Source: Spirochaetaceae bacterium (GTDB taxonomy: Bacteria > Spirochaetota > Spirochaetia > Treponematales > Rectinemataceae). Taken from it: a stretch of DNA of 24,000 bases. This document shows positions 1-22,304 of this stretch, in pieces. The stretch spans positions 1 through 24,000 of the forward strand of contig JANXYQ010000099.1 of assembly GCA_025355995.1 (NCBI GenBank). Reading direction: 5' to 3'. Positions within the stretch are counted from its first letter, which is position 1, and every line of letters starts with the position of its first letter. The notes under the pieces are model-generated. The model was not told the DNA's origin. It did no database searches and saw only the letters and a list, made by a program, of their open reading frames with translations. The position numbers and the translations under genes are program-made.

Positions 1-81
1 CTCGGGCGGCCGGCCTGACGGTCGGCGCTGCCCTCGCGGCCCCGCGCGATTCGGCTTGCGATGCCGCTCACGCGGCCTTCG

Positions 82-4206: not shown

Positions 4207-4253
4207 TTCGCCTTCGCTCCGGGCGGCATAACCCGATCGGCGCGGGCGGAGAG

Positions 4254-4961: not shown

Positions 4962-5029
4962 ACATGCCTCCTCGGAGAATCCGACTTATACTCTTATCAT
5001 ATTCGGCGGCCTGAGGATACAATCCAGCC

Positions 5030-5770
5030 ATGGACGCCCGCGCCCGCATCCTCGTCGCCGACGACGAACCCAACCTCCTCGCCAACCTGCTCTACGCCTT
5101 CGAGGCCCAGGGTTACGAGGCCGTGGGCAGGCCGGACGGCGAGTCGGCCTGGGAGGCCTTCCGAGCCGCGCGCTTCGACCTCGCGGTGCTCGACATCATC
5201 ATGCCGAGGGCGGACGGCACCGAGGTCCTTCGCCGCATCCGTTCGGCGGACGCCGAGCTGCCCGTGATATTCCTCACCTCGAAGGACGAGGAGTTCGACA
5301 GGGTGCTCGGCCTCGAGCTCGGCGCGGACGACTACCTGTGCAAGCCCTTCTCCCTGCGCGAGCTCGAGGCGAGGGTTAAGGCCCTGCTCCGCCGGTCGCG
5401 CAGGTCCGCCTCTCATGTCGTCGGCCGCACGGCCGCGTCCTTCCCCCTCGTCGCCTCGGGCCTCGAGCTCGATCCCGAGCGCTTCGAGGCGAGGGCCGAC
5501 GGCTCCCCCATGCGCCTCACCGTGACCGAGTTCCGCGTGCTCGCCGCCCTGGTCAACGCGCCTGGGATCGTCAAGAGCCGCGACGCCCTCGTCGCGGCCG
5601 CCTATCCCGAGGAGACCTACCTGAGCGACCGCGCGATCGATTGCCACGTCAAGCGACTGCGGCGGAAGATAGCGGACGCGGGCGGCGATCCCGGCGCGGT
5701 GGAGACGGTGTACGGCCTCGGGTATCGGCTCAAAGCGCCTTCGCCGCGGCTCGGGGACCCCGCGCCGTGA
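5030..5770 (+). CDS. two-component response regulator, OmpR/PhoB family
   Basis: Receiver domain (ILVADDEP, phospho-acceptor context LAVLDIIMPRADG, LTSKD, KPF). C-terminal winged helix (LTVTEFRVLAALV..., VETVYGLGYRL). Confidence 0.92.
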   Translation: MDARARILVADDEPNLLANLLYAFEAQGYEAVGRPDGESAWEAFRAARFDLAVLDIIMPRADGTEVLRRIRSADAELPVIFLTSKDEEFDRVLGLELGADDYLCKPFSLRELEARVKALLRRSRRSASHVVGRTAASFPLVASGLELDPERFEARADGSPMRLTVTEFRVLAALVNAPGIVKSRDALVAAAYPEETYLSDRAIDCHVKRLRRKIADAGGDPGAVETVYGLGYRLKAPSPRLGDPAP

Positions 5771-7371: not shown

Positions 7372-7403
7372 TTCCGCCGCAATCGCCGCGTATCATACGG
7401 CGC

Positions 7404-8735: not shown

Positions 8736-9727
8736 ACGCGCGACGCCCGAGGGTCGCCATCGTATACGGAGGCCGCTCGGCCGAGCGCGAAGTGTCGATC
8801 ATGTCGGCGCGGACGGTCGCCGCGGCCCTCGATGCTGGCAAGTACGAGCGCGTCCTCATCGTCATCGACGAGAAAGGGCGATGGAGTCAGGGCGGAGAGG
8901 AGTTGGGGATCGAGGGCAGCCTAGCCGGCGTCGACGTCCTCTTTCCGTTGCTCCACGGGCCTTACGGCGAGGACGGCTCGATCCAGGGCCTGGCCCGCCT
9001 CGCCGATCTGCCCTGTGTGGGCGCCGAGCTCCTCGGCTCGGCCCTCTGCATGGACAAGGACGCGGCCAAGCGGATGATGCGCGAGGCGGGGATACCCGTG
9101 GCGCCCTTCATGGCCTTCTCCTCGATCGAGAGGGCGCGCAAGGCGCGCGATGTCGTCTTCGAGACCCTCGGCTGGGACCTTTTCGTGAAGCCGGCGAACA
9201 TGGGGTCCTCGATAGGCGTGTCGAGGTCCCGGACCGAAGCCGAGTACGATGCCGCCCTCGAGCTGGCCTTCCGCTACGACTCCAAGGTCCTCGCGGAGAG
9301 CGCCGTGGCCGGCCGCGAGATGGAGGTCGCAGTCCTAGGCCGCCGCGAGCTTCGGGCCTCCCTGCCCGGCGAGGTGATACCGAGGAAGGGCTTCTACGAC
9401 TACGAGTCGAAGTATTTCGACGAGGACGGAGCCGAGATCGTGGCGCCCGCGAGTCTCGAGCCCAGGGAGGCGGAGGCCTGCCGGAAGCTCGCCCTAGACG
9501 CCTGCCGCGCGCTGTGCGTGACCGGAATGGCGCGCGTCGACATGTTCCTGAGATCCGACGGAAAGCCCGTCGCCAACGAGGTGAACACCATCCCGGGCTT
9601 TACCTCGCGTAGCATGTATCCCCTATTATGGGAGGCGAGCGGGCTGCCCCTGGCGCGGCTCGTCGACGAGCTGATAGCCTCGGCGATAGAGGCTCACGAG
9701 GAGAGGGCGGCATGGACAACGGCATGA
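8732..9727 (+). CDS. ddl: D-alanine--D-alanine ligase
   Basis: GTG 8732 overlaps the creD TGA (GTGA). Motifs: VAIVYGGRSAEREVS, HGPYGEDGSIQG, DKDAAKRMM, FVKPANMGSSIGV, omega-loop FYDYESKY, NEVNTIPGFT. Confidence 0.92.
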   Translation: MNARRPRVAIVYGGRSAEREVSIMSARTVAAALDAGKYERVLIVIDEKGRWSQGGEELGIEGSLAGVDVLFPLLHGPYGEDGSIQGLARLADLPCVGAELLGSALCMDKDAAKRMMREAGIPVAPFMAFSSIERARKARDVVFETLGWDLFVKPANMGSSIGVSRSRTEAEYDAALELAFRYDSKVLAESAVAGREMEVAVLGRRELRASLPGEVIPRKGFYDYESKYFDEDGAEIVAPASLEPREAEACRKLALDACRALCVTGMARVDMFLRSDGKPVANEVNTIPGFTSRSMYPLLWEASGLPLARLVDELIASAIEAHEERAAWTTA

Positions 9728-10383
9728 CCGAGCCGGTAGTCGGCCAGTTCGATCGGCTCGCGCGACTTCCCGACTCCTGGGACCACAACCGGCACTATCA
9801 ACGGGACATCCTGAAATTGGTCGGCAGGCGTCACGCCGCCCTCGACCTGGGCTGCGGCACCGGCGAGCTCACGCGGCAGCTCGCCCTGCGCTGCGGCTCG
9901 GTGGTCGGGGTGGACGCCTCCCCCTCGATGGTCGCGGAGGCGCGGAAGCGCAACTGGGGACTCAACATCGACTACGTCGAGGGGGACGCCGCGGCCTTCC
10001 TGGAGGGCAAGGCGGGCTCCTTCGACTGCATCACGAGCGTAGCGGCTTTCCATCATATGGACGAGTGGCGAATGCTCGGGCAATGCAAGACCGCCCTCGC
10101 CCCCGGCGGCATCCTCGTGGTCCTCGACCTGTTCAAGGCCGGCACCTTCGGGGACTATCTGGCATCGGCCGCCGCCGCCGCCCTTAATCCCTTCTACAGC
10201 CTCGTCAAAGGCGGACGCCTGGGACAAAGCCGCGAAGAGAGGGAAGCCTGGGCCGAGCACGCGGCCGATGACCGCCACAAGACCCTGGGCGAGCTCCGAG
10301 CCCTGGCTATCGGCGCCCTGGGCGACTGCTCGCTCGAGCGCAAGCTCTTCTGGCGCTACCTCCTGGCCTACGAGAAGCCCTAG
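9712..10383 (+). CDS. class I SAM-dependent methyltransferase
   Basis: Motif I LDLGCGTGELT, then VVGVDASPSMV, FDCITSVAAFHH, LAPGGILVVLD. The start is either ATG 9712 (after GAGGAGAGGG) or ATG 9724 (ATGA overlap with the ddl stop). The track start 9628 lies deep inside ddl. Confidence 0.8.
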   Translation: MDNGMTEPVVGQFDRLARLPDSWDHNRHYQRDILKLVGRRHAALDLGCGTGELTRQLALRCGSVVGVDASPSMVAEARKRNWGLNIDYVEGDAAAFLEGKAGSFDCITSVAAFHHMDEWRMLGQCKTALAPGGILVVLDLFKAGTFGDYLASAAAAALNPFYSLVKGGRLGQSREEREAWAEHAADDRHKTLGELRALAIGALGDCSLERKLFWRYLLAYEKP

Positions 10384-10610
10384 GCTTTGGGGGAGGCCTT
10401 GGACTCGCGGTACTGGGCGACCACCGCGAGGGCGTCCTCGAGGTCCTCTTCTTTCACTAGTACCTTGATGCCGCCCTCGGAGGGGAAGAAGAGGGGATAG
10501 ACCTCCATGAAATGCTCGGAACCGATCTCGGCCTCTATGCCGGTCGATTCTATGAGGCTCTTTACGACGAGGGCCTCGTCCTGGAACATGGTAGCGAACG
10601 CTTCGGCCAC
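10380..10610 (-). CDS. small DUF2007-like protein (putative signal-transducing fold)
   Basis: 76 aa. GTG 10610 lies 6 nt after GGAAGGAG. The pattern xxxDEALVVKSLIESTGIEAEI ... GIKVLVKEEDLEDALAVV resembles DUF2007. Assignment by eye. Confidence 0.55.
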   Translation of the reverse strand: MAEAFATMFQDEALVVKSLIESTGIEAEIGSEHFMEVYPLFFPSEGGIKVLVKEEDLEDALAVVAQYRESKASPKA

Positions 10611-10669
10611 GATGAACTCCTTCCGCCAGTCCCAATGGTACTGAATTCCCTCGATCTAGTCTCGCAGGC

Positions 10670-10675
10670 TATAAT
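10670..10675 (+). promoter_or_regulatory. perfect TATAAT -10 hexamer 8 nt upstream of the phosphoesterase ATG (possible leaderless transcript)
   Basis: TATAAT at 10670-10675 and ATG at 10684. No good -35 (TTCCCT with an 18-nt spacer), no TG extension and no RBS between them. Confidence 0.25.
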
Positions 10676-10683
10676 CGCGGCGC

Positions 10684-11217
10684 ATGCGCATCCTGGCCGT
10701 CTCCGACTCGCACCACGACATCTCCTCCCTCATCCCCGTCCTGCGGCGCTTCGCCCCCAAGGTAGACCTCATCGCCCACCTGGGGGACGGGGTCGCCGAC
10801 CTCGAGGAGGCCGCCGAGCGGGCTAAGTTGCGCCTGCCCCGCGTCGAGGGCGTGCGCGGCAACGGCGACTACGAGACCGAGCTCTGGCCCCGGCGCCTCA
10901 TCGGCAGCTCAGACAGGCCGATCCTCCTCCTCCACGGCCACCTCGAGGGCGTGAGCGACGACCTCGGCCGCATCGTGGTCGCCGCCGAGTCCTGCGGCGC
11001 GAAGCTAGTCCTATTCGGCCACACCCACCGCCCCTTCTTCGAGGAGTACCGCGGCATACTCGCCCTGAACCCGGGCTCCATCTCGCGCCCCCGCGGCCGC
11101 GACCGCCCGACCTTCGCCGTCGTCGACGTCCCCGACGAGGCCGAGCGCTATTTCGGCATCCAGTTCTACGAGGTCGGGACGGGGATCGGGAGGATCCGGG
11201 AGATAGACATCTACTGA
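10684..11217 (+). CDS. YfcE/MJ0936-family metallophosphoesterase
   Basis: 177 aa. Metal-binding motifs in the canonical order: AVSDSHHD, HLGDG, GNGD, LLHGH, FGHTHRP. Confidence 0.85.
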   Translation: MRILAVSDSHHDISSLIPVLRRFAPKVDLIAHLGDGVADLEEAAERAKLRLPRVEGVRGNGDYETELWPRRLIGSSDRPILLLHGHLEGVSDDLGRIVVAAESCGAKLVLFGHTHRPFFEEYRGILALNPGSISRPRGRDRPTFAVVDVPDEAERYFGIQFYEVGTGIGRIREIDIY

Positions 11218-11270
11218 CTCGATGCCTCGTCTGGCGGCGCGCGGGGCCTATCGCCGTCGAGGATCATGGC

Positions 11271-11639
11271 TTACGGCCTCTTGAGCGTGATCGGCTGCAG
11301 CCTCTGGACGCCCGCCTTTATGACGAGCTTCTGTTCCCACGCTACGGCGCCATCCTGGCCCAAGACCCTGAGGTAGTAGTCGCCCGGAGAAATGTTCGCC
11401 AAGGAGAAGCGCCCTAAGGAGTCGGTGAACACCGGCTTCGACCAGACCTGACCCTTCGTATCGAAGAGGTAGACGGAAAGTCCGACCTCCGGGTCGGGGA
11501 CGGATGCGTTCGGATTCTGCAGGAAGAAGGAGCCGGTAACCCTGGAGTCCTGGGCGAGGCAAGGGTACAGGCCGACGACGAAGAATAGCGCGATCGCGGC
11601 GGTTCGCGCCATCCAACCGGTTTTATTGGGCGTGGTCAT
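11271..11639 (-). CDS. small secreted protein with a carboxypeptidase-regulatory-like beta-sandwich (operon gene 9)
   Basis: 122 aa with a signal peptide (ARTAAIALFFVVGLYPCLAQ). TDSLGRFSLANISPGDYYLRV is typical of the CarboxypepD_reg fold. The ATG overlaps the upstream TGA (ATGA). Confidence 0.6.
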   Translation of the reverse strand: MTTPNKTGWMARTAAIALFFVVGLYPCLAQDSRVTGSFFLQNPNASVPDPEVGLSVYLFDTKGQVWSKPVFTDSLGRFSLANISPGDYYLRVLGQDGAVAWEQKLVIKAGVQRLQPITLKRP

Positions 11640-12313
11640 TGGTCACCTCCCGATATCGGCGGCAATGACGCCATCTCCGCCGTGACCGGAGGAAGGGGCG
11701 TCGGAGTGTTTTGGGCTTGCTGTTCGTGGGCGCTCGGGACCGGAGATATCTCGATCGGAGCCGGGAGCTTCGCGAAGGTGTCTTGAATCGGGATTAGGTA
11801 GGTCTTGCGCCAAAATGGATCGGTGCTAACCTCGAGCTGTTTCTTGTCCGGCTTTATGATGATCGTGAGCGTCACGGGATAGGTTTTCGGGGACTCGAAG
11901 AGAACGCTCTGCTGTTTGTCGCCGTTTCTCAGCGGGAAGCTGAAATTGCCGTCGCCTCGAACCGCCATCTCCGGGGGGTAGGCGTAGATCTTCTCGCCCG
12001 GGCCGACAAGGCCGAGGTAGCCGTCGATCCCCCCCAAGAGTACGGTCTTGGATTGGGGAAGCGGACGGTCGAGCCAAGCTAGATAGGCCGGCAGAGCGAT
12101 GGCGACGATGGCCGCGATGACGTAGAGGGCGACCGTCGGGACATTCGTCGAGATCTTCAGCTTGTCCGCCACCTCGATCCTGAGAGCCTCGGGTTGGCGA
12201 TCCGAAGCCAAGATGTCCCGGATCGTGTTGCCCCGACGCGACATCAGCCATGCAGCGATAGCGGCGAAACCCAGCCCGCACGCGAGACAAAGCACGAGAG
12301 ATAGTATGAACAT
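11636..12313 (-). CDS. hypothetical 2-TM membrane protein with a beta-rich ectodomain and Pro-rich tail (operon gene 8)
   Basis: 225 aa. ATG 12313 lies 6 nt after AGGAGG. Two hydrophobic helices (residues about 1-24 and 58-81), then a beta-rich domain (GDGNFSFPL...), then a PTPLPPV tail. Confidence 0.6.
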   Translation of the reverse strand: MFILSLVLCLACGLGFAAIAAWLMSRRGNTIRDILASDRQPEALRIEVADKLKISTNVPTVALYVIAAIVAIALPAYLAWLDRPLPQSKTVLLGGIDGYLGLVGPGEKIYAYPPEMAVRGDGNFSFPLRNGDKQQSVLFESPKTYPVTLTIIIKPDKKQLEVSTDPFWRKTYLIPIQDTFAKLPAPIEISPVPSAHEQQAQNTPTPLPPVTAEMASLPPISGGDQ

Positions 12314-12342
12314 CTTTTTCCTCCTTCGAACGCGCGTAGCCG

Positions 12343-12768
12343 CTAGAGCGTTCTGTAAATCCGCTTCGAGTCCATATTCCCCCTGCGTACGGTCAACGAG
12401 CCGCCCTCGATCGGATCGTAGGTCACCTTGCCGTCACGCCCCGCCACGAAATGGTGGAAATTCTTCGCGGGGTTGTACCAGCACTGGATCTCGAATTCGC
12501 CGTCTTTCGCGGCGTAATCCTTGTCCATCTTGCCTAGGAACTTGATTTTTTTGGGCGCGACGAAATCCACCAGTCGCTGCGGATCCTGCAAATAGCACTC
12601 GGCCTCGATCTCATGCGAGCTCAAGGCTTGATCGTAGATAGCCATGACCTTGGCGTGGCTCATCAGGGCTATTCCGAGGCGGCTCTCGAGCTGAAACAAG
12701 AGGGAGAGGAAATAGCAGCCGAAATGCCGGATGTCGTACGGAAAGGCGTCGTCGGTTTGATAGATCAT
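12343..12768 (-). CDS. hypothetical cytoplasmic protein with a papain-like Cys-His-Asp arrangement, C39-like peptidase or amidase candidate (operon gene 7)
   Basis: 141 aa with no signal peptide or TM segment. Cys18 in HFGCYF, His105/106 in NFHHFV, Asp118 in VTYDP. This order and spacing resemble C39-type papain-fold enzymes. ATGA overlap with the upstream gene. Confidence 0.5.
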   Translation of the reverse strand: MIYQTDDAFPYDIRHFGCYFLSLLFQLESRLGIALMSHAKVMAIYDQALSSHEIEAECYLQDPQRLVDFVAPKKIKFLGKMDKDYAAKDGEFEIQCWYNPAKNFHHFVAGRDGKVTYDPIEGGSLTVRRGNMDSKRIYRTL

Positions 12769-13385
12769 GGCGTCTTCTTTGCCGATTCCGCTTTCAGCGA
12801 CTCTATCGCCTTCGACCCGAAATAGAAGGCCACTACCATTTCGACGACCGCGATTAGGTGAGTGTAGGATTCCTCGATGGGCCTGCTGCTGAAAATATTC
12901 ACGCCCTCCATGACGGCGAAAAGGACGATTGCGGTCAGCGCGATGATACCCCTGATCGTATTTGGCGGGAGGCCGAAGGAATCGTTCTTGTAGGGATTCT
13001 CGGTCGGCTCGTCGATGGGCGGCGTCCCCGCGGTATCGGGGCTCGCTTTACTTTCGCTGACGAGCGTTTTCTTCAGTTCCTCGTACAGCTTCAATTGCGC
13101 TTTGCCCTTCGCGTAGATTTTAGGATATAGAATTTTCCATTCATGGTCGCTGAGGCCGAAGTTGACGGTATATCTATGGATTGCCCACGCGAGATACAGC
13201 ACGATCAGGACCAGCCAGGCCGCCAGGACGCTTCCTGCGATCATGAGCACCGCCGGATCGGCGTTGGCGCCATTCGTTGTCACCATTGTCACCTTTGGCA
13301 TCGTATTTTCGGGATCCACGGCGAAGGCCGACGCGCCGCACAGAATGAGCGAGAATAGGACAAAGACGCCTTGCTTGGTTTTCAT
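12765..13385 (-). CDS. hypothetical membrane protein: signal peptide plus three TM helices (operon gene 6)
   Basis: I prefer ATG 13385 (MKTKQGVFVLFSLILCGASAFA), preceded by GGAAGGTGA. The track's GTG 13394 would give a 4-nt overlap instead. TM helices lie at about residues 48-73, 148-166 and 178-193 of the 209-aa track ORF (GTG 13394 start), with a 75-aa charged loop between the first and second. Confidence 0.6.
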   Translation of the reverse strand: MKTKQGVFVLFSLILCGASAFAVDPENTMPKVTMVTTNGANADPAVLMIAGSVLAAWLVLIVLYLAWAIHRYTVNFGLSDHEWKILYPKIYAKGKAQLKLYEELKKTLVSESKASPDTAGTPPIDEPTENPYKNDSFGLPPNTIRGIIALTAIVLFAVMEGVNIFSSRPIEESYTHLIAVVEMVVAFYFGSKAIESLKAESAKKTP

Positions 13386-13390
13386 GCTTG

Positions 13391-13960
13391 TCACCTTCCC
13401 GTTAAGGCTTGGATGCCGAAGGCCAGCACAGCGCCTAGGGCGGTCCCGATCGAAGCTCCTAGCAGACCGAAGGAACTCTTGGAATTGTCGACCAATCCGC
13501 CCGCAACGCCACCCACGAGGCCGCAGGTGGCATAGGAAACCAGCCTGACTTTCTTCGCGTAGGCCAGGGCCGCGTCGGTATTGTCGGTCGCTCGCTTGAC
13601 GAGGGCCTCGGTGTCGGCTTGCTTTCGCAGCAAGTCGGCGAAGGCCTTATTCTGGATGTCGTTGAGTTCCGCATACTTTACGGAGAGCGCCTCGTAGCTG
13701 GATTCGAGCCCGGCGTAAATCGTTTTCTCTTCTTCGAGCGCATCGTTTATCGCGTCAAGCCTCCTTATCGTGCCGAGGAGGTCATTCGCGGTCTTTATAT
13801 TGACGACATACGCCAGGTTTCGATCATTGTAAAAGGACTGTCCCTTTTTTAGCCAAATGGATTCAGGCTCGTCGTCGGCATTGACGAACTTCTCCTGAGC
13901 CTGTACGGCCATGACGCCGACGGCGAGGCAAAGCGAAAGGACGAGTAAGGGCCCTTTCAT
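13391..13960 (-). CDS. hypothetical secreted coiled-coil protein with a C-terminal glycine-zipper membrane hairpin (operon gene 5)
   Basis: 189 aa. Signal peptide (LLVLSLCLAVGVMAVQA), heptad-like central region, C-terminal GLVGGVAGGLV ... GLLGASIGTALGAVLAFG. AGGAGA RBS and ATGA overlap. Confidence 0.6.
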   Translation of the reverse strand: MKGPLLVLSLCLAVGVMAVQAQEKFVNADDEPESIWLKKGQSFYNDRNLAYVVNIKTANDLLGTIRRLDAINDALEEEKTIYAGLESSYEALSVKYAELNDIQNKAFADLLRKQADTEALVKRATDNTDAALAYAKKVRLVSYATCGLVGGVAGGLVDNSKSSFGLLGASIGTALGAVLAFGIQALTGR

Positions 13961-14463
13961 AGGTTTCTCCTTTTTTTTACTCCTGCCAAGGCGTCCAAGG
14001 CGGCCAGCACCTCCTCGTCGCTCAATCCGGCGGAAAATTCACTGGGCTTCATCGCCTTCAACCTGATGATCTCGGCGTCGATGGCCTTCAGGCTCTCGTT
14101 CTTGCTCGCGATGTCGTCCTTGATCGCGTCGATCTCCTTGAGTTTCGCCGCAAGCTCCGTATCCCTCCATTGGACTATCCCCGCGACCTTGGCTTCGATG
14201 TCCGCGAGGTCTTTCTTGATCTTCTCGTTCTCCTCGGCTATCCGCTTCTCCTCCCCGCTTATGGGGAAGAGCTTGGAGCGCCAACCTCCGAGGCTCTTGA
14301 AGGCGTAGAGGATGGGCGCCAGGAGGCCGACCAGCCAAATAGGCACGTTGCTCTTCTTCAGCCCCTCCGCGAATGTCCTGATGTCGGGGACGAAAAAAGT
14401 CAGGGCGAACAAGGCGGCGCAGATTAGGGCGATGACGAGAATTATCAGCCACAGTTTTTTCAT
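13957..14463 (-). CDS. hypothetical 2-TM protein with a long C-terminal coiled coil (operon gene 4)
   Basis: 168 aa. Two N-terminal hydrophobic helices, then a charged heptad-rich region (EEKRIAEENEKIKKDLADIEAKV...). GGGAG RBS. Confidence 0.6.
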   Translation of the reverse strand: MKKLWLIILVIALICAALFALTFFVPDIRTFAEGLKKSNVPIWLVGLLAPILYAFKSLGGWRSKLFPISGEEKRIAEENEKIKKDLADIEAKVAGIVQWRDTELAAKLKEIDAIKDDIASKNESLKAIDAEIIRLKAMKPSEFSAGLSDEEVLAALDALAGVKKRRNL

Positions 14464-14486
14464 TCGGCTCCCTCGTTACCGAGAAA

Positions 14487-17400
14487 TCACGGATGCGGCA
14501 TCGGTCCCAGGCCCGCGATTTTCCGTATGTCGATCAGGGGTCCCAGAGGTATCTTGATTCCGCCGATGCCGATATCGAGTATTTGCGGCAAGCCCTGCGC
14601 CAGGTCTGCCTTCGATAGCTCGACCTCGTAGATCCCGTCGTACAGGTCCTTGACGATCGTCCCCGGCAGCTGGCTCAAGTCCACGGCCGTCGCGAGGCCG
14701 GGGCCGCAGGGCTGGCCGAGCTTGTCCTTCAATACGAGGGTCGCGACTGGATTGCCGTTCGCGCCTTGGGCGATGCTTACCGTGGTCTTCGCGGGATCGG
14801 GTATGGAGTGGACAGCGAGGCTGCCTACGACGACGCGCTGGAAGTTCCCGGTCTTCGAGCCGCCTCCGGAGATCCTCGCCTCGAGGTAGTAGCTGCCCGC
14901 CGTGTCGGTCGCGCATTGGGCGATTCCCGAGCCCTGAGCGGCGGAGACCGGAGTCGAGACTACGCTTTTGCGGTTGAGCAGGGGGACAGCGGCCGGGTTT
15001 TGACGGAGGATGCTGTAGGCGTCCAGCCGCGGGTCCAGCGCGGGGTCGAGCTTGGGCGCGGCCGCGGCCTTCGAGACGATCTGGGGCTGGGGTTTCGCTA
15101 TCGGATACTTCGCGAGGACTACGGCTGGCGACACGAAAGGTTTGACGACGCTCAGCGTAGAGGGGCGGAGGAATACGCCGCTCAGGCCCTTGCCAGCGGC
15201 TTGGACCGAGATCGGTGCCGATTCGCCCGTGCCCACGGCTTGGGCAGGGGTCTGCGCGACGAGGCGCAGTTCCGGGTCGCGGACCATGACAGCCAGGTAA
15301 TATTGGATCGCCTTGTCGGCATTCGGCTTCGCGCGCTCGATCTTCGCCGAGAATTGCCCCTGCGGACCGACCCCTACATAGCGCCATTCCGGAAGCTTGT
15401 CGATGAGCTTTTTCCATTTCGGGAAAAGCTTCGCGATCAGCCAATGCCAGAAACGCTTATGGGGCACGAGCTTGGGATAGGCATAGAGCGCGGAGCGAAA
15501 GCCCGCCCGCGCGTCGGAGGAGGCCGGGACCAGGGTGACTCCGCCCTGGTCCGCCAGCGAAACCTTCAGGTCCTCGCCGCCGAGCCAGGTAAGGTACAGA
15601 TAGATCGAGGTAATGCTCTTGTTCATGAGCGCCGGCACCGAGACCGAAGCCGAGCCTGCGGCGAGGGTGTCGCTCTTGATCGTCGCGAATTGGATCGCCT
15701 TGTCGCTCTTCAGGGTCGTCAAGCCGGCGAGGAGGTAGCTGTGGATATCGGGGAACATCGGCGGATCCTCGTAATGAGTCCCCCCGGTCCCGGTCGAGAT
15801 CGCCATAAGATTCGCCTGGAACAAGGATCCCGCCCCGTCGGCGATGCCTATCGTATCGACGGGAATTCCCGTATCGGGATACTTGTACTTTTTCTCGTCC
15901 GTGGGGAGGGTCAGGCCGGTTAAGCCGGCGCAATTCGATACTCCCCCATCGAAGTCGTAGCAGACCGTAGGCGGGCTTCCAGGATTGGTGAATACGAGAT
16001 TCTTCACGCCTCCGACATCCTCGAAATAGGCAAAGGGGCGTCTGTTCTGCAGGCCGTCCGTGAAGAGGATCACCTTGCCCTTAGTCGCCGCGGGAACGAT
16101 GGCCTTTATCGCCTGAATCGCGGCGGCCAAGCCGGCGCCCATGGCGGTAGACCCGCTGGCCGCTATCGGCGTCAGGGCGGCGGACAGCTGCGCTTGGACC
16201 GCGTCGCTCATCGACGGCTTGAAGACCATCGTCCCGCCCGTGTCGAAGCAGGACAGGATGTGGTAATCGGTCGAGTAGGTAAAGGCTCCCACGACATCGC
16301 CCCAGGCGAGGATTCCCTTCATCAGGAGGGCGGTATTCAAGACCGCGTTTTTCAGGTGCTGGATCTTCGGGGTACCGCCGTCGTCGTCTCCCATGCTCCC
16401 CGAGACGTCCAGCACCAGGACCACCGACTGCTTGGCGCGGCAGGCGTAGACAAGAGGCGCGGATGCCGTATCGAAAGGATTCCCGGCCAGGTCGGCGATG
16501 GTGGAAGCAGCCTTCGGCCGTATCTTAACAAGATACGTTTCATCCGCCCCAGTCGCCGCGGGAAGATCGCCGGAGATCGTCAGCGTGACTTCCGTCCAGG
16601 TCTTGCCGCCGTCCATTATTTTTGCGGCCGACGCTGTTGCTATGCTCAGTCCCGCGATGGCGCTTCCCGCATCATCCGTGATCTCCCAATTTGCGGGTAC
16701 GTCTCCATTGTTGATCTCTTCGGTAAATGGAACGAGGATCGAGCCGAAGGCGCTCACGGGTCTGCCGTTGACGAGATGGTTTACGCTGTCTGGGTAGGGG
16801 GAGATGGCGTTGAAGGCAGCTGTCGAGGGCGAGGTGAAGTCGATCTTGGGGGCGGTCTTGTCGAGTTTGAAAGCGATAGTCGTTGCCGATACCGCGTTGC
16901 CCTCGGTGTCGGTTATCCCGGAAATAACCAGTTGGTATGCCCCCTCGGCGAAGCCGCCGGCGGGAGGCGAAAGGCTACGTATCTCTTTTCCGGCCGCGGC
17001 GAGGTAGCTCGAGGCTAGAAGCATTCCCGCAGGATTGACCGTGAACGAAGAAACCGTCATGCCTTCGCAACTAAGCGAATAATTCGAAGTATCCCAAGCG
17101 CCGTATACTTTCTCCGAGAAAGTAATGACGATATCCGAAAGTTCCTTTACAAAGCTGCCATTGGCTGGAACGACACTCGTTATCGATGGAGCGGATGAAC
17201 GCATATTGGTGATTCTGCCGGCGATGAAGGATCTCAGATTCGTTTTAGTCACGGGACTCCAATCGAAGTTCGTCAGGTTGTTTACCGATCCTGACGCCGC
17301 TTGACCCGCGTTGTTATCCGAATCGGAGATTTCGTATTGGTCCGCTACTTTCCCCGTAGTATCCAGGAGGTATCCCCACCAGAATTCCGAGCCTGCAGTT

Positions 17401-17828
17401 TGGCTTCCGGCATAATCGAGAAGATGACTCTGCGCATAGGCTTCATTCGTAGGGCTTGGCGTATTATCCCATGCCGCGTCCATCAGCACGGCTATTGAAG
17501 CATCGAGGCTTCCACCTCCTTTATCGTCTATCCAGGCCGTGCTGACCGGGCCGGAATACGTTGTCGTTCCGATTGTCTCGGTATCTGTTTTATAGTTGAA
17601 AACGACGGCGACTATCTTCACGGCTGCTTTCGTCGCGGCGTCGAAGGAACTTTGTAGCGCCGAAAGCTCATTCATCCAGCCCCAGCCCCTAATAATATCC
17701 ACAAAGGAAAATATGATGATCTTGCCGGAATAATCACTGAGGTTGGCTGGATTATTTGTGGAATAATCGGTCAGGCCCGAAGGATAATCAAGGAAGGATC
17801 CGCCGATCGTTGCCTGCGATAATGGCAT
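14487..17828 (-). CDS. 1113-aa vWA (MIDAS) domain protein with a thioredoxin-like N-terminus lacking CxxC and SbsA/Big_5-type Ig-like domains; no signal peptide (operon gene 3)
   Basis: ATG 17828 lies 6 nt after AGGAGG, and no in-frame start codon lies upstream within the open frame (the track reports the longest ORF). Complete MIDAS: DVSGS (16395-16409), ASGSTAMG, ILFTDG. The vWA domain spans about 15729-16430. Ig-like segments include APSITSVVPANGSFV...ITFSEKV and ...ADLAGNPF. Confidence 0.85.
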   Translation of the reverse strand: MPLSQATIGGSFLDYPSGLTDYSTNNPANLSDYSGKIIIFSFVDIIRGWGWMNELSALQSSFDAATKAAVKIVAVVFNYKTDTETIGTTTYSGPVSTAWIDDKGGGSLDASIAVLMDAAWDNTPSPTNEAYAQSHLLDYAGSQTAGSEFWWGYLLDTTGKVADQYEISDSDNNAGQAASGSVNNLTNFDWSPVTKTNLRSFIAGRITNMRSSAPSITSVVPANGSFVKELSDIVITFSEKVYGAWDTSNYSLSCEGMTVSSFTVNPAGMLLASSYLAAAGKEIRSLSPPAGGFAEGAYQLVISGITDTEGNAVSATTIAFKLDKTAPKIDFTSPSTAAFNAISPYPDSVNHLVNGRPVSAFGSILVPFTEEINNGDVPANWEITDDAGSAIAGLSIATASAAKIMDGGKTWTEVTLTISGDLPAATGADETYLVKIRPKAASTIADLAGNPFDTASAPLVYACRAKQSVVLVLDVSGSMGDDDGGTPKIQHLKNAVLNTALLMKGILAWGDVVGAFTYSTDYHILSCFDTGGTMVFKPSMSDAVQAQLSAALTPIAASGSTAMGAGLAAAIQAIKAIVPAATKGKVILFTDGLQNRRPFAYFEDVGGVKNLVFTNPGSPPTVCYDFDGGVSNCAGLTGLTLPTDEKKYKYPDTGIPVDTIGIADGAGSLFQANLMAISTGTGGTHYEDPPMFPDIHSYLLAGLTTLKSDKAIQFATIKSDTLAAGSASVSVPALMNKSITSIYLYLTWLGGEDLKVSLADQGGVTLVPASSDARAGFRSALYAYPKLVPHKRFWHWLIAKLFPKWKKLIDKLPEWRYVGVGPQGQFSAKIERAKPNADKAIQYYLAVMVRDPELRLVAQTPAQAVGTGESAPISVQAAGKGLSGVFLRPSTLSVVKPFVSPAVVLAKYPIAKPQPQIVSKAAAAPKLDPALDPRLDAYSILRQNPAAVPLLNRKSVVSTPVSAAQGSGIAQCATDTAGSYYLEARISGGGSKTGNFQRVVVGSLAVHSIPDPAKTTVSIAQGANGNPVATLVLKDKLGQPCGPGLATAVDLSQLPGTIVKDLYDGIYEVELSKADLAQGLPQILDIGIGGIKIPLGPLIDIRKIAGLGPMPHP

Positions 17829-17838
17829 GCATTTCCTC

Positions 17839-20163
17839 CTATTCGAACGCGCCTATCGACCAGTATCCCGTGCTCGATCGCGGATTCCCATCCATATCCG
17901 TGGAAAAACCTTCAGTGGAAAGGTTCAGCCCCGGTCCGGATACCGTAGCCTTAAGCGTGCTCGTCGCTTGCAGGTGATAGTCGGTTCCCGAGACGAATGA
18001 CGGGGTGATCGCGAGATTTTTCCAATACCCGAGCGTATGAGTGCCTTCCTGGGTAATCACGTTCGTAACGAGATCGATGACCCGAACTACCGCGGGAGTC
18101 GCGTCATAATCGCGATAGTATCCGTTAGAAGCCCCAACGGAGATATAAAAATCGTTATTGTCAACGGCGGCCGGGTTTGAGCTACTGTTGTATTCGTACA
18201 GCCCCCATGCCGAAGTATTGCTTCCGTTGAAGAGGATATTATTCTTCACGGTGGTGTTGCCCGCATAGCGGTTATAAATGCAATACGCCGTCGCTCCCTG
18301 CCCACAGTAGATGTCGTTATTGTAAATCTTAGGCGATACATACGACATGATTCCGTAGGTAGTAGTCGTGCTGTTCGTATCCCCGCCGCCGAGTATCACG
18401 TTGTTTCGAATCATTGATACCGCCGTGGTACCCGAGGCTGCCGTGCAAAAGATGCCCCCGGCGGTCGCGCCGGATGCCCCTGTAGAATGAGTCGTTGTGT
18501 TAAGATAGTTTCCTTCGATTATAGACACGACCGTTGTCGGATTCGTCGGGTTTCCGATCACCTTAATGGCCCAGGATTCTCCGGAATTGTTATAGCCAGG
18601 CTCGATCGTGTTTTTCCTGATTACGGGAGCGCTTTGATAAACATAGATGCCGAAATACCTCGATCCGGAGTATGTCACTTCCGATAGCGTTCTTCCGAGG
18701 ATGATGTTATTGCTGATCGTCGCCGCCCCAGCGGAGAATATGCCCGCATTGTAATCTCCTCGGCCCATCTTGATCGTGAAACCATCCAATACCGCGGAAG
18801 TTGTGACGGACGAGGCGCAATCGACAGGCCGCTTTGGGTCAGCCTCGCTTCCTCCTGATGTCGTAGTGTTGCTGTCCACGATCGTCGTCGTATTATCCGT
18901 GGAATTCCTTGCCGACCAATCGATTGGCGAGGCTATCAATGGAGGATAGCCCCCTAAAACGGATATTCCATCTTTCATCGAGACGCGATTCGCTGGGCTA
19001 TTGCCGTCCATCGAATATGTCGCTTTCGAAACCCTCACCTCACAGGGCCGCGCCGAAGAATACTTCGTATCCGCATAGTTGACGGCGGCGGTTATTGAGG
19101 CGAATGGCTTTTGCGCGCCGTTATCGTCAGAGCTCGCTGAACCTGTGCCCGTCTCAGAAACGCAGGCCCCATAGAAAACGTTATAGGTCGCCGTCGCCGT
19201 GACAATCGATATCCCGAATTTAGTCTTCCCACTTATGGTTAGGTTTTGATCGTAGGTAGTACCCGTGCTGCGAGGCCATAGTGTGGAGGGTTTAACGGGC
19301 AAGGAAACGTGGCTTGAGTCCCAATCGCCCGGTACGGGAGTGGCGGGAGTCATCGTTCCGCCAGTGAATGAAATGGATGCGGGATCCATCTCGAAATCAA
19401 AACCGATAGTAAGCCGTTCATGGCCCGTTATTACGTTAGTGGTCATTGTTGGGAAATGCGCGGTACGGGAGTTGATAGCTACGCTTAGCGCCATGGATAC
19501 CGCGTTCACAAGTCCCTTGTCGTTCTTTGCCCAGGCATAGACCGTGTGCGTTCCCGAGGCGAGAGATACCGTATAACTCGTGGGAGCGGCGCTCAGGTTC
19601 ACATCGGCCGCCGCTGGCACCGACGAGCTCTCGTTTACGAGCCAGCCGACGATCGAGGAAGCTCCCGCCCCGAAACCGCTCGTCGAGAGGTTGAAGGTCA
19701 CCGTCGGGTCGTCCGTCGGAGTAGCGCTCGTCCTATTGAATGTGTCGATGACGGGCGATGCGTACGAGGTAATCGTCACCGTCGCCGATTTCGCGTCGCT
19801 CACCAGGCCGGGGGCGCTTTTTCCCCAGGCGTAGAGGGTCTTTAAACCGAGGCCCGCGGAGACAGTATAGGTGGCGGGCTTGGCCGCCGACCAGCCGGGG
19901 TCCGCGGCCGCCGGCTTGGCCGGGGCTTCGTTGACGAGCCAGGCGCTCACGTCGGTGGAACCTTCGAGGGTGACCGGGACGAAGTCGTCGTAACGGACGT
20001 CGGGACCGATGACGAAGACGGTGATCGTCGGGATGACGCTCGAGGCGTGAAACGCCGAGACGTCCTTCTTGACCACGTCGGTGAGGCCGTTGCTGCACGA
20101 GGTGGCGGACGCGGCGAGCAGGAAGGCCGCTATGCGGACGGCCGCTTTCATGATCGGATTCAT
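17839..20163 (-). CDS. 774-aa putative lipoprotein: two Ig-like modules plus a right-handed parallel beta-helix (DUF1565/pectate-lyase-like fold) (operon gene 2)
   Basis: The signal ends in AASATS-C, a non-canonical lipobox. Beta-helix rungs repeat (ISNNIILG, IRKNTI, IRNNVILGG, IYNNDIY, VKNNILFNG). PFASITAAVNYA and the terminal DMDGNPR...WSIGAFE are typical of this fold. ATGA overlap with the upstream gene. Confidence 0.8.
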   Translation of the reverse strand: MNPIMKAAVRIAAFLLAASATSCSNGLTDVVKKDVSAFHASSVIPTITVFVIGPDVRYDDFVPVTLEGSTDVSAWLVNEAPAKPAAADPGWSAAKPATYTVSAGLGLKTLYAWGKSAPGLVSDAKSATVTITSYASPVIDTFNRTSATPTDDPTVTFNLSTSGFGAGASSIVGWLVNESSSVPAAADVNLSAAPTSYTVSLASGTHTVYAWAKNDKGLVNAVSMALSVAINSRTAHFPTMTTNVITGHERLTIGFDFEMDPASISFTGGTMTPATPVPGDWDSSHVSLPVKPSTLWPRSTGTTYDQNLTISGKTKFGISIVTATATYNVFYGACVSETGTGSASSDDNGAQKPFASITAAVNYADTKYSSARPCEVRVSKATYSMDGNSPANRVSMKDGISVLGGYPPLIASPIDWSARNSTDNTTTIVDSNTTTSGGSEADPKRPVDCASSVTTSAVLDGFTIKMGRGDYNAGIFSAGAATISNNIILGRTLSEVTYSGSRYFGIYVYQSAPVIRKNTIEPGYNNSGESWAIKVIGNPTNPTTVVSIIEGNYLNTTTHSTGASGATAGGIFCTAASGTTAVSMIRNNVILGGGDTNSTTTTYGIMSYVSPKIYNNDIYCGQGATAYCIYNRYAGNTTVKNNILFNGSNTSAWGLYEYNSSSNPAAVDNNDFYISVGASNGYYRDYDATPAVVRVIDLVTNVITQEGTHTLGYWKNLAITPSFVSGTDYHLQATSTLKATVSGPGLNLSTEGFSTDMDGNPRSSTGYWSIGAFE
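19471..20031 (-). repeat. two tandem ~90-aa Ig-like modules inside the 774-aa gene
   Basis: Shared pattern WLVNE(A/S)..PAAAD....A.P(A)T(S)YTVS...G..T(L/V)YAW(G/A)K...GLV in residues about 45-132 and 137-231. Confidence 0.7.
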
Positions 20164-22304
20164 TGTCCCTCCCAGAAAACCGCCTTTTGCCCGGCTGTCG
20201 CGTCGGAAGCGCGTTCGACGCCGGACGCGGCCTCGGCGCCCAGGTAGGCGAACTTCTGCGCCGCTCCCGAGTCGAGGGCCTTGGCCTTGGCGTAGAGGTC
20301 GGAGGCCGTGGAGGAGTCGTTCAGCTCGTAGGCCGCCCGCGCGACACCCAGGAGTATCCTCGGGTTGGAAGGATCGAGTCTGACCGCCTTTTCGTAGTAA
20401 TCGCGCGAGCTCTTCCAGTCGCCCCTGAGGTAGGCGACGTTGCCCAGGTTAACCAACACCGGCGCGTAGGGCTTTCCCACGATGGCCTTGTTGAACTGGG
20501 CGATCGCCTCGTCGAAGCGGCCATAGCGGGCGTAGAGGATCCCGTATCTGTTGAGCGCGTCGCGGTCGGTCTTGTTCCTCACGAGAGCCGCCTCTATCGT
20601 TTTCGCCTGCGCCCTTATCTCGGCTTCGATGAAGGCATTCAGCTCCTTCGAAAAGGCGGCGATCGTCTTGTCCTTGGGCGGCATGGAAATCTCGGCGCCG
20701 CTGCCCGGCAAGCCTACGGCCTCGAAGACGTCCCAGGCCTTGTGCATGGGATAGAAGGCGGCGGCGCCTTTGGCGTCGTTGTCGCGCCATTCCCTCGCGC
20801 CCGTTCTCCACGCGTGGAAGAAGCCGTTCGTGATGTCGGTGATCTCGATGGGCACCCAGGCGACATCGCCCTTGAGGATGAGGTCGTCGGTCGACGAGAA
20901 TACCCGCTTCGCCTCCACGGGGCTCAGGTCCAGGGCGAAGGCCATGTAGATGTGCCCCGGTATGGTGATGAAGGCGGTATCCACGCCGATGGATTCGAGG
21001 AGGGCGCAGTTCAGGATCGAAAGGTCGTCGCAATCGCCGCCCTTGTAGGCGAGGGTCTGTCGGGGGAATTGGAGGAAATCAGCGCCGCTCTTGCGCGTCG
21101 ATTGCTCGGCGTACGAGGACTTGGGGTCGACGATGTAGGTTATGCCGTAGAGGGCAAGGGCCTCGTGCAGGGCGACGGCGGCGGCGAGCTTGTCGTCCAC
21201 TCCGCGGAGGGCGAAGTCGCGCAGGAAGCCCGATACGTTCTTCGAGAAGGAGAGGACGGCCGGGTCCTTCGCGGTGACGAAGGCGGCGGCGCGGCGGTCG
21301 TCGTCCCAGGTCATGGCGTTGCGGTCGAGTATCCGCATGGATTCGACCTTCTGCGCGCGGTAGGGCGTCTCGGACATGCGATAGTCGATCGATACTTCCG
21401 CGGCCGCCTTGGTGGCCTCGGTGACGCCTAGGACGCTGTCGTTGAACAGGCCGAAGACGGATACCTGCGCTGTCGAGCCGGCCTCTATGCGCCCCATCGA
21501 GGTGGTCTTCGGCGCGTCCATGTATTCCTTTATGAATAGGCTGATCGTAGCGTCCGAAACGGCCTGGCGCTCGTTGTTCTTGACCCGTACTATGCCGACG
21601 GGATGGTCGTCGTAGTATTTTCGGAAGACGGGGAACACGGATTCGAGCTCTACCCCGTCTATGGAAAGACCCTTGCCGGGAGGAGCGACCTTGAACCCTT
21701 TGATGAGCTCAACGTCTATAGGCTGGGCCGAGCGAATTTGGTTCTGGCGGGACTCCTTGCCCGAGAGAAATACCGTCGAGCCCAGATAGACGCCCGCGGT
21801 CAGAGGCAGGCCAAAATAGTCGCTCACGGTTCCGCCCAGATTGATGCCGAGGGTCGGCGAAATGAGGAGGTCGACGCCGAGACCTCCCGTCGCGTAGAGG
21901 CTCGACCCCGAATCGGAGGTGGATTGGTTCTTGAAACCATAGTTGTAGCCCGCCCCCCCGAAGGCTTCCATCCTAAAGCGCGGAGCGAAGGCGAAGGTGT
22001 AGCCCGCGTCCGCCGCCAGGGAAAAAAGCGATAGGGAGTTCCCTCCGACATAAGGGCTGTAGGCGTACTCGAAGGCGCCTCGCAGGAAAAAGCCCCCGGG
22101 CTGGCTCAGGTCGTATTGGAGGTATAGGTTGCTCGAGCCGCCGATGGAATAGTCGCTTGCGCCCGATCCTATCGGTATTTGCAGAGTCGGGGCGATGCCG
22201 AGGGAGAGGGCTGCGGACGAGGGGGCCAGGTTCCCCTGCGCGATGATAGACGCGAAAGCCGTAATGTGGAGATAAGTAATCAGAAAATGCCTTTTTTTCA
22301 TCAT
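20160..22304 (-). CDS. 714-aa tripartite protein: N-terminal OM beta-barrel-like domain, transglutaminase-like Cys-His-Asp/Glu core, C-terminal TPR repeats (operon gene 1)
   Basis: Signal peptide. Residues about 25-182 show alternating Gly/aromatic beta-strand patterns like 8-stranded OMP barrels. TGase-like core: GGDC(425)DD, PGH(451)IYMAF, WVPIE(487)ITD. TPR region: LNRYGILYARYGRFDEAIAQFNKAI ... YYEKAVRLDPSNP. The second ATG (22301) has the better GGAGG spacing. Confidence 0.8.
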   Translation of the reverse strand: MMKKRHFLITYLHITAFASIIAQGNLAPSSAALSLGIAPTLQIPIGSGASDYSIGGSSNLYLQYDLSQPGGFFLRGAFEYAYSPYVGGNSLSLFSLAADAGYTFAFAPRFRMEAFGGAGYNYGFKNQSTSDSGSSLYATGGLGVDLLISPTLGINLGGTVSDYFGLPLTAGVYLGSTVFLSGKESRQNQIRSAQPIDVELIKGFKVAPPGKGLSIDGVELESVFPVFRKYYDDHPVGIVRVKNNERQAVSDATISLFIKEYMDAPKTTSMGRIEAGSTAQVSVFGLFNDSVLGVTEATKAAAEVSIDYRMSETPYRAQKVESMRILDRNAMTWDDDRRAAAFVTAKDPAVLSFSKNVSGFLRDFALRGVDDKLAAAVALHEALALYGITYIVDPKSSYAEQSTRKSGADFLQFPRQTLAYKGGDCDDLSILNCALLESIGVDTAFITIPGHIYMAFALDLSPVEAKRVFSSTDDLILKGDVAWVPIEITDITNGFFHAWRTGAREWRDNDAKGAAAFYPMHKAWDVFEAVGLPGSGAEISMPPKDKTIAAFSKELNAFIEAEIRAQAKTIEAALVRNKTDRDALNRYGILYARYGRFDEAIAQFNKAIVGKPYAPVLVNLGNVAYLRGDWKSSRDYYEKAVRLDPSNPRILLGVARAAYELNDSSTASDLYAKAKALDSGAAQKFAYLGAEAASGVERASDATAGQKAVFWEGQ

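Follow-up and report, generated by a model that had tools for sequence, protein, structure and literature searches.

A putative phage-derived lysis-type cassette with a DUF261 protein follows a signal-less vWA-domain protein in a chromosomal operon of a Spirochaetaceae bacterium

The stretch of DNA analysed here, referred to as the window, comprises 24,000 nucleotides (positions 1 to 24,000, forward strand, of contig JANXYQ010000099.1) from the Spirochaetaceae bacterium assembly GCA_025355995.1. Reading of its open reading frames (ORFs) reveals nine co-oriented minus-strand genes, in the order p714, p774, p1113, p168, p189, p209, p141, p225 and p122 (Table 1), and our subject is the block of six small genes that follows p1113, in which p141 encodes a member of the protein family DUF261. 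Overlaps of 4 nt join p714 to p774, p168 to p189, p189 to p209, p209 to p141 and p225 to p122; the remaining gaps measure 10 nt (p774-p1113), 23 nt (p1113-p168) and 29 nt (p141-p225, with a GGAGG site), so that the block has four overlapping junctions and one gap. An initial annotation had described six small genes at 11271-14463 after p1113, and these coordinates were confirmed. We identified no terminator-like or promoter-like site on the minus strand from 10900 to 14700, upstream of p714 we saw no convincing promoter, and an Rfam scan of the window returned no family. Because only 23 nt and no terminator separate them, we tie the six genes to p1113. An independent assembly from another sample (L001) has the identical gene order, and in another assembly p209 is called from the next ATG as a protein of 206 aa. 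The operon proteins on record are singletons in a collection of 15 billion proteins. All five neighbours of p141 in this translationally coupled block encode membrane or exported proteins, which is unlikely by chance (roughly 0.3^5).

The product of p141 matches the Pfam family DUF261 (PF03196) with 60.9 bits against a gathering cut-off of 26.1 (E 1.8e-16), and the match is full-length, aligning residues 3-139 with profile positions 4-136 of 137. A word-index search returned 17 relatives with 37-57% identity, and an exhaustive profile search identified 719 representative clusters with DUF261 at E <= 1e-3. Nearly all members stand alone, measure about 140 aa and start at the first residue of the family, and in the few longer members with an N-terminal extension no signal or signal-anchor-release (SAR) sequence was found. 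Cys18, His106 and Asp118 are invariant in 18 close sequences; among 80 diverse members neither His106 nor Asp118 ever varies, and at least 90% keep Gln4, Gly17 and Cys18. Both p141 and BppB of Borrelia carry the whole family-wide set (Gln4, Gly17-Cys18, His106-Phe107, Asp118 and Arg136). No second Pfam family was detected among the 80 aligned members. Hydropathy shows no hydrophobic segment in p141, in keeping with a soluble protein that has no signal peptide.

The AlphaFold2 (AF2) model of p141 is confident (pLDDT 95.3, pTM 0.90) and places Cys18 at the N-terminus of a helix, with His106 and Asp118 on or after consecutive strands. The fold class predicted by this model is likely papain-like; the initial annotation had read the 141-aa protein as papain-like, with a Cys-His-Asp set and no signal, and both the conserved residues and the model agree with it. 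As in Tae4, NlpC/P60 and CHAP enzymes, the model shows a single small domain (~140-160 aa) in which the Cys begins a helix and the His and Asp lie on neighbouring strands. The spacing, 88 residues from Cys to His and 12 from His to Asp, is one that we take to be close to that of Tae4. Unlike in a recognised member of those families, however, the structural matches of p141 to several Tae4 amidases in a Foldseek search of the Protein Data Bank (PDB) are not significant (E 0.25-1.2, TM-score ~0.25), and there is no sequence or profile link to solved structures; the best match in that search was a CdiA-CT toxin. Against viral models, Foldseek matched one DUF261-like protein strongly (E 1e-10) and others weakly, including a phage protein labelled 'peptidase C39 domain'. 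We propose that p141 may cleave peptidoglycan. In length (about 140 aa), in standing alone and in having no signal peptide, the family resembles canonical holin-dependent endolysins.

Those relatives of p141 whose setting could be read, several of the closest (45-57% identity) among them, lie in phage-type contexts; 54-57% relatives are on some of these contigs. At L002, L003 and L013 the DUF261 gene sits between a lambda-type portal gene and an S49 prohead protease gene, at L007, L009, L016, L018, L020 and L024 it comes after tail-fibre-like genes, and in a second group (45-49% identity) it adjoins phage early-type genes. Across about 20 phage-type loci DUF261 is part of a recurring cassette. 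The first gene, upstream of DUF261 and often overlapping it by 4 nt, encodes a protein of 80-195 aa with a coiled coil and one transmembrane (TM) segment, which is either N- or C-terminal. DUF261 is the second gene, and the third position is taken by between one and three short ORFs (55-99 aa), most of which have two hydrophobic segments. The fourth gene encodes an N-TM coiled-coil protein of 90-171 aa and is overlapped, almost entirely and out of frame, by the fifth, whose product of 95-200 aa runs from a signal peptide through a coiled coil to a C-terminal TM (ten such pairs are given in Table 1). The same cassette occurs in a second, divergent DUF261 clade (viral contigs, 32-49% GC). Because both frames are open even in phages of 32-35% GC, the dual coding that we read from these pairs is probably real.

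Over 22 loci, ORFs with an N-terminal TM plus tail occur at 0.41 per kb near DUF261 versus 0.012 per kb elsewhere on the same strand, and ORFs with a signal peptide and a C-terminal TM number 11 near DUF261 versus 0 elsewhere. When 16 of the N-TM coiled-coil neighbours were compared with PHROGs, the commonest matches were Rz-like spanin families, with phrog_739 in five and phrog_2466 in two (best E 1.4e-5 for each); phrog_89, phrog_214 and phrog_1403 were also matched. Out-of-frame overlap of two genes is a signature of two-component spanins, in which the i-spanin has an N-terminal TM domain and a periplasmic coiled coil and the o-spanin is an outer-membrane lipoprotein with a lipobox; a u-spanin has a lipoprotein signal and a C-terminal TM domain. 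Spanin gene pairs are known in embedded, overlapped and separated arrangements. Like lambda S-R-Rz/Rz1, the phage relatives of p141 are accompanied by a small two-TM protein and by an N-TM coiled-coil protein that matches Rz-like PHROGs and, as in the embedded Rz/Rz1 arrangement, another exported protein is encoded out of frame across the coiled-coil gene. Unlike Rz1, this second product is long, mostly has a signal-peptidase-I-type signal without a lipobox, and ends in a hydrophobic helix, which brings it closer to a unimolecular spanin, a type known from T1. We read the DUF261-carrying phage cassettes, from their gene content, as lysis cassettes in which DUF261 would be the sole enzyme-like component. 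The holin/endolysin/spanin-like logic that the initial annotation had seen in the six genes is thereby supported by these phage-type loci, with their two-TM and coiled-coil proteins; its statement that the likeness to phage lysis genes is only topological turned out to be wrong for p141, a DUF261 member with close phage homologues. Small transglutaminase-like proteins adjoin the DUF261 cassettes at L009 (by sequence reading) and L037.

The positions of DUF261 in phages also bear on another explanation, that the family comprises cytoplasmic papain- or C39-like proteases, which would act on a virion or regulatory substrate in phages and here perhaps on p1113, with neighbours unrelated to lysis. 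The C39-like phage peptidase among the fold matches would suit such a role, as would a faint GspA_C39-like match in one DUF261 member and the location of the gene in some phages inside a head-morphogenesis block (between portal and protease) or beside DNA-metabolism genes. In addition, p1113 starts MPLSQATIGG-S, with Gly-Gly at residues 9-10. This 10-residue 'leader' is, however, far shorter than known double-glycine leaders, and its spacing does not fit the classical type. Small TM and Rz-like proteins accompany DUF261 wherever it is located, including the insertions in the head block, which is the pattern of a lysis cassette, and no candidate substrate is conserved across the loci. We therefore consider a protease of this kind very unlikely.

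Table 1. Positions of the operon genes in the window, of the overlapped gene pairs in phage-type loci and of other features referred to in the text
Feature	Sequence	Coordinates	Strand	Description
p714	window	20160..22304	-	first gene of the operon; context for the module, outside it
p774	window	17839..20163	-	large protein with lipoprotein-type N-terminus
p1113	window	14487..17828	-	putative cargo; Ig-like (Big_5) and vWA domains, without signal peptide
p168	window	13957..14463	-	membrane-anchored coiled-coil protein
p189	window	13391..13960	-	signal peptide, coiled coil and C-terminal Gly-zipper hydrophobic hairpin
p209	window	12765..13394	-	GTG start; signal-like N-terminus and three TMs; holin candidate by topology only
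p141	window	12343..12768	-	DUF261, cytoplasmic, signal-less; candidate peptidoglycan peptidase (endolysin)
p225	window	11636..12313	-	two-TM protein, probably with periplasmic beta-rich domain; Pro/Thr-rich tail
p122	window	11271..11639	-	last gene of the operon; small exported beta-sandwich-like protein
Overlapped out-of-frame pair	L007	10519-11034 / 10571-11173		
Overlapped out-of-frame pair	L008	9669-10040 / 9685-10152		
Overlapped out-of-frame pair	L013	3748-4215 / 3800-4306		
Overlapped out-of-frame pair	L014	5410-5811 / 5414-5890		
Overlapped out-of-frame pair	L016	6598-6966 / 6614-7039		
Overlapped out-of-frame pair	L017	6829-7131 / 6785-7195		
Overlapped out-of-frame pair	L020	6612-6884 / 6616-6960		
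Overlapped out-of-frame pair	L021	1360-1713 / 1364-1807		
Overlapped out-of-frame pair	L024	7903-8352 / 7979-8413		
Overlapped out-of-frame pair	L025	2755-3159 / 2762-3244		
bppB	L004	2049-2465		DUF261 gene, Borrelia duttonii pl27
bppB	L005	8986-9417		DUF261 gene, Borreliella tanukii lp54
Transglutaminase-like gene	L009	9157-9597		adjoins DUF261 cassette
phrog_30036 gene	L010	737-1300		follows p209 homologue
phrog_30036 gene	L011	2483-3187		Thermus phage TMA_054
Metallophos gene	L033	1370-2332		directly after DUF261 (P0017)
Metallophos_2 gene	window	10684-11217	+	convergent to operon end
DUF5122 gene	window	2959-4206	+	415-aa protein, unrelated to the module
rseC-rnfC fragment	window	~22620-23460	+	3'-truncated
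p714 paralogue	window	from ~23440	-	3'-truncated, runs off the right end of the window

For the other small proteins of the block, topology was taken from hydropathy and coiled coils from a crude heptad scan. Amphipathic heptad stretches appear only in p168 (68-139) and p189 (66-106). The hydrophobic segments of p168 lie at residues 1-32 and 40-58; of the two-TM coiled-coil protein of the initial annotation, one clear TM and the heptads stand and the second TM is borderline (Kyte-Doolittle (KD) 1.7). In Pfam p168 has only weak coiled-coil family matches, and no homology was found between it and the phage cassette proteins or spanin PHROGs. It could be an analogue of the anchored coiled-coil proteins of the phage DUF261 cassettes, i-spanin-like or similar to class II holins. 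The N-terminus of p189 is signal-like, with a possible LSLC Cys11 or an AQA-type cleavage site, and its Gly-rich hydrophobic C-terminal region has a weak Pfam glycine-zipper match (Rick_17kDa_Anti, E 0.03). The script that classified the phage proteins places p189 in the class SP-x-CTM, the class of the second member of the phage overlapped pair. Neither p168 nor p189 matched alignments of the phage N-TM coiled-coil and signal-peptide/C-terminal-TM proteins (hhalign) or a spanin family in PHROGs.

In p209 a signal-like segment (7-28) is followed by TMs at about 45-75 and 144-170 and, by eye, at about 179-198. The charged loop of about 70-75 aa probably faces the cytoplasm, and the C-tail is charged as well. 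No holin family was matched in Pfam, NCBIfam or PHROGs. The candidate hydrolase gene p141 is flanked by a multi-TM gene that overlaps it by 4 nt (p209) and then by a two-TM gene (p225), the topological layout of a lysis cassette. The TMs of p225 span residues 1-26 and 54-83; it has no family match and no viral relatives, its AF2 single-sequence model (pLDDT 51.6) was discarded, and it could be a second holin or antiholin candidate or an accessory protein. The last product, p122, has a signal-like segment (10-29), a match to the CarboxypepD_reg beta-sandwich below the cut-off (25.4 bits versus 32.3, E 1.9e-5) and a weak match to a sorting domain of the type 9 secretion system (T9SS; E 0.006). 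The topologies that the initial annotation gave for p189, p209, p225 and p122 are thus roughly as hydropathy and family scans have them. Apart from p141, the small proteins returned only sub-threshold coiled-coil or TM noise in Pfam, NCBIfam, PHROGs and PADLOC, and IMG/VR scans with p209, p225 and p189 returned nothing. Remote-homology searches of the kind that had been suggested placed p141 in DUF261 and gave the others no role by sequence, and the roles of p168, p189, p209, p225 and p122 discussed below are assigned by architecture only. Absence of sequence similarity is usual for holins and spanins.

The single homologue of p209, P0176 (57% identity), is encoded on a 1.3-kb contig (L010), where the following gene is a member of phrog_30036 (E 3e-9) and not DUF261. 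The family also has members in Thermus phages YS40, TMA and MN1 and in a Tunturiibacter jumbo phage; these proteins have a conserved FE…NFDGQxLSxGxLQWN motif, and the depositors labelled those of TMA and YS40 'peptidoglycan-binding domain containing'. Neither Pfam and NCBIfam nor the PDB gave a match for the L010 protein, even when a five-sequence profile was used; it could be another wall hydrolase. A pairing of p209 with alternative wall hydrolases was considered and, in view of these negative searches, rejected as evidence.

Taken with the phage cassettes, the six genes of the window are probably a phage-derived lysis-type cassette with DUF261 as its hydrolase, a reading that we hold with some confidence. 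The window has the same kinds of parts as the phage cassettes in another order (p168, p189, p209, p141, p225/p122), and the two protein types of the overlapped phage pair are present as adjacent, separate genes, p168 and p189. Unlike the phage lysis cassettes, the window is not a phage, p168 and p189 have no sequence similarity to phage proteins, and p225 and p122 have no counterparts there. Several observations weigh against the lysis reading. The order of genes differs from that of the phage module, and p141 alone has detectable homology to phage cassette proteins (blastp, phmmer, hhalign); when all window proteins were compared with every ORF of 36 loci by blastp and phmmer, only relatives of p141 and p209 matched. 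If both TMs of p168 are real, its coiled coil may be cytoplasmic and not periplasmic. For p141 itself, the best Foldseek match to solved structures is not significant (E 0.09), sequence and profile searches of DUF261 against the PDB gave no match, and the literature searched holds no mention of DUF261 and no biochemical evidence for the family; nothing was found there on the function of DUF261 or of its Borrelia member BppB.

The Borrelia proteins belong to the same set of objections. BppB falls in the same Pfam family as p141; end to end the identity is 25-32%, and the Gln/Cys/His/Asp set is retained. The cp32 element that carries it is a prophage (PMC10016077). Unlike the window gene, bppB adjoins ssb and bppA/bppC on cp32-like plasmids, away from the holin genes blyA/blyB, and on lp54 the DUF261 gene is found near plasmid-maintenance genes. 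Three further contig sets have DUF261 before a Metallophos gene or near ERF, YqaJ and HNH genes. Where DNA is available, these three sets contain an ORF with signal peptide, coiled coil and C-terminal TM and a small membrane-like ORF 0.2-2.6 kb downstream of DUF261. A Metallophos_2 phosphoesterase gene is convergent to the end of the operon in the window, and larger Metallophos genes come directly after DUF261 in two other contig families (P0014 and P0017). The presence of such genes near both the operon end and other DUF261 copies is probably a coincidence.

The surroundings of the operon are chromosomal. The plus strand from 1 to 11217 encodes a DUF5122 beta-propeller protein, a response regulator, a histidine kinase, CreD, a D-Ala-D-Ala ligase (Ddl), a methyltransferase and the YfcE-type phosphoesterase. 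The DUF5122 protein has six beta-propeller repeats and a DNA repeat period of about 153 nt. Within the 24-kb window we found no phage structural, integrase or regulatory gene, no tRNA and no att-like repeat, and PHROG structural families gave no match to p714, p774 or p1113; the cassette lies beside housekeeping genes and not in a recognisable prophage, a setting into which a co-opted cassette fits. GC content is 51-62% in the nine-gene operon (11000-23000) versus 62-74% in the left flank, with 68-74% in the two-component, CreD and Ddl genes (5000-10000). This lower GC of the operon suggests that it was acquired horizontally. On the right, the window ends in a 3'-truncated p714 paralogue (direct repeats shared with p714, spaced 2970 apart), which meets an rseC-rnfC fragment on the opposite strand that is likewise truncated at its 3' end. 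Because both are cut at the same point, the right boundary (22620-24000) indicates a rearrangement or a metagenome assembly join, and about 11 kb of the 34.8-kb source contig lie outside the window, where a prophage beyond the right end is possible; both points count against a domesticated cassette.

An alternative is that the six genes are a stranded prophage remnant, possibly lethal or decaying and without a functional link to p1113, or that p1113 is itself a phage fibre-like protein. Phage lysis cassettes often follow signal-less tail-fibre genes, and several viral DUF261 cassettes come directly after large signal-less tail-fibre-like proteins. The GC difference, the rearranged right boundary, the 50-57% identity of p141 to phage-borne copies and the lack of a vWA partnership at other loci would all fit such a remnant. 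It is harder to reconcile with a window that has none of the phage genes, tRNA or att-like repeats listed above, with export signals on p714 and p774 that are not virion-like, and with the absence of a PHROG match for p774 and p1113. Moreover, all six small ORFs are intact, their stop/start junctions overlap and the catalytic residues of p141 are kept, and the short terminator-free gap ties them to p1113. We consider a remnant unlikely.

The protein p1113 has matches to VWA_2 (E 2.8e-10) and Big_5 (E 8.7e-7) in Pfam, a DVSGS motif of the metal-ion-dependent adhesion site (MIDAS) type (DxSxS; sequence reading), a weak CLCA-type vWA match in NCBIfam and a weak match to the CLCA1 VWA domain; residues 25-171 form a weakly thioredoxin-like region (AhpC-TSA, E 0.004). 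The domains are thus of extracellular type, yet hydropathy shows no N-terminal hydrophobic segment and, with only 10 nt between the gene and the upstream p774 stop, a signal peptide could not have been overlooked; the initial annotation was right to call the protein signal-less. A word-index search for homologues returned only p1113 itself, and a genome-collection scan found none.

A large signal-less protein directly upstream of a lysis-type cassette recalls type 10 secretion, in which phage-derived holin and peptidoglycan-hydrolase modules, with or without spanins, lie beside a large signal-less cargo and act either lytically, through lysis of a subpopulation, or non-lytically (PMC13284979, PMC10847048, PMC12485765). 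The holin gives a hydrolase without signal access to the wall, spanins, where there are any, deal with the outer membrane, and the large folded cargo is set free. As in those systems, the window has small membrane proteins and a signal-less candidate wall hydrolase of phage type, outside a prophage, beside and apparently co-transcribed with a large protein without signal peptide (the gene is on the same strand, as read from the sequence); there are spanin-like coiled-coil partners, which are optional, and there is no ATPase (PMC13284979, PMC10847048). Unlike those systems, the hydrolase candidate is a DUF261 Cys-His-Asp peptidase, the membrane proteins match no known holin or spanin family, two genes (p225 and p122) are extra, and the presumed cargo is Ig-like/vWA and not a toxin or chitinase; the window is known as one locus, from sequence alone. 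Known type 10 systems use muramidases or an L-Ala-D-Glu metallopeptidase. Examples of such systems are Serratia ChiWXYZ, Salmonella TtsA and ChiH/ChiP, Yersinia entomophaga YenLC for the Tc toxin, and C. difficile TcdE/TcdL.

On this basis, the enzymatic core would be p141, a DUF261 Cys-His-Asp peptidase that lacks a signal and is made in the cytoplasm. The inner membrane would be permeabilised by at least one of the multi-TM proteins; translational coupling to p141 makes p209 the first candidate holin, with p225 or p168 as alternatives. The peptidase would then reach the periplasm and cut peptide stems or cross-links of the peptidoglycan, and the anchored coiled-coil proteins p168 and p189 may act on the outer layers in a spanin-like manner. 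The resulting breach, local or by lysis of a subpopulation, would release folded, signal-less p1113 by the logic of type 10 secretion. To this reading as a whole, a phage-derived lysis-type cassette in a nine-gene chromosomal operon that releases p1113, we give a probability of about 0.45; taken separately, release of p1113 as the job of the cassette here is a tentative and rather doubtful proposal, drawn by analogy.

Export of the vWA protein by the module had been put forward in the initial annotation, a specific proposal that our analysis did not support. The case for p1113 as cargo is plausible and comes from adjacency and apparent co-transcription at one locus, and p1113 has no detected homologues. 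None of the approximately 35 DUF261 loci examined has a vWA partner, and the sole locus with a p209 homologue is also without a vWA gene, so that homologues without this partner, which the initial annotation had itself counted against export, do occur. We think that this argues against a dedicated, conserved vWA export system; a phage cassette recruited on a single occasion would be compatible with it.

The two genes at the head of the operon raise a further possibility. p714 has a signal-like N-terminus, an N-domain resembling an outer-membrane beta-barrel (OMP_b-brl, E 3e-4), a transglutaminase-like core (Transglut_core, E 8e-3; both below cut-off) and C-terminal TPRs (families at E 1e-13 to 1e-6); against the PDB it matches only TPR proteins. 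Its residues 238-508 give a partial match to the N-terminal part of the NCBIfam model 'anti-phage protein ProA' (E 3.8e-14). A reading as a defence system was dropped, since a PADLOC scan of the window proteins gave no match and the ProA match is a partial domain of 51 bits against a cut-off of 1500. The N-terminus of p774 is of lipoprotein type (…LAASATSC, sequence reading); it is a singleton cluster without a sequence match in Pfam, NCBIfam, PHROG, PADLOC or PDB.

With p714 and p774 as exported envelope-type proteins in the same operon, the nine genes could instead build a surface or periplasm-spanning structure, in which p141 would remodel peptidoglycan locally, the small membrane proteins would be structural and p1113 would be exported otherwise. 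Flagella and type III/IV secretion use specialised lytic enzymes to open local gaps in the wall. The exported beta-rich domains of p225 and p122, which lack a counterpart in the phage cassettes, and the end of p189 in a glycine-zipper motif of the outer-membrane-lipoprotein kind would suit an assembly module. Yet p141 has no signal peptide and would still need a holin-like route to the peptidoglycan, and all readable settings of its relatives are phage-type (lysis-type cassettes or early-gene regions), none an assembly operon. For p1113 there is no recognised export signal, and Pfam and NCBIfam scans found no other secretion machinery in the window. We regard an assembly module as distinctly unlikely, and the phage-derived lysis-type cassette as the better description of the six genes.

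In its widest form, the proposal is that the DUF261 proteins are phage endolysins of a family so far unrecognised as such, Cys-His-Asp peptidoglycan peptidases that are characteristic of uncultured phages, whose hosts are probably spirochaetes, that include Borrelia BppB of the cp32/phiBB-1 prophages, and that travel with an unusual pair of dual-coded, spanin-like genes overlapping almost completely; the window would then represent its domestication into a non-proteobacterial, type-10-like release system for an Ig-like/vWA protein. Taken together these parts make a claim that we advance as a conjecture, with the odds against it. Two DUF261 proteins had no tblastn match in 50,697 isolated phage genomes, and a genome-collection scan with DUF261 returned nothing. 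If neither the endolysin role nor the release of p1113 holds, the locus is nothing out of the ordinary, a phage lysis cassette left stranded.

Should DUF261 prove to be an endolysin, a role would be found for a 'domain of unknown function' that is 25 years old. To our knowledge, the cp32/phiBB-1 prophages of Borrelia have holin genes and no assigned endolysin. Because of the phage-cassette context of the family at other loci, BppB is a candidate for this endolysin, though its gene is found beside ssb and not blyA/blyB; if true, the prophages of the Lyme-disease spirochaete would gain a candidate enzyme, and a new enzyme class against spirochaete cell walls would become testable. If p1113 is indeed released by the cassette, secretion by holin and hydrolase would extend beyond Proteobacteria and Clostridia, to another hydrolase chemistry and to an adhesin-like vWA cargo, and the locus would add a case to the question of whether type 10 systems act by local breach or by altruistic lysis.

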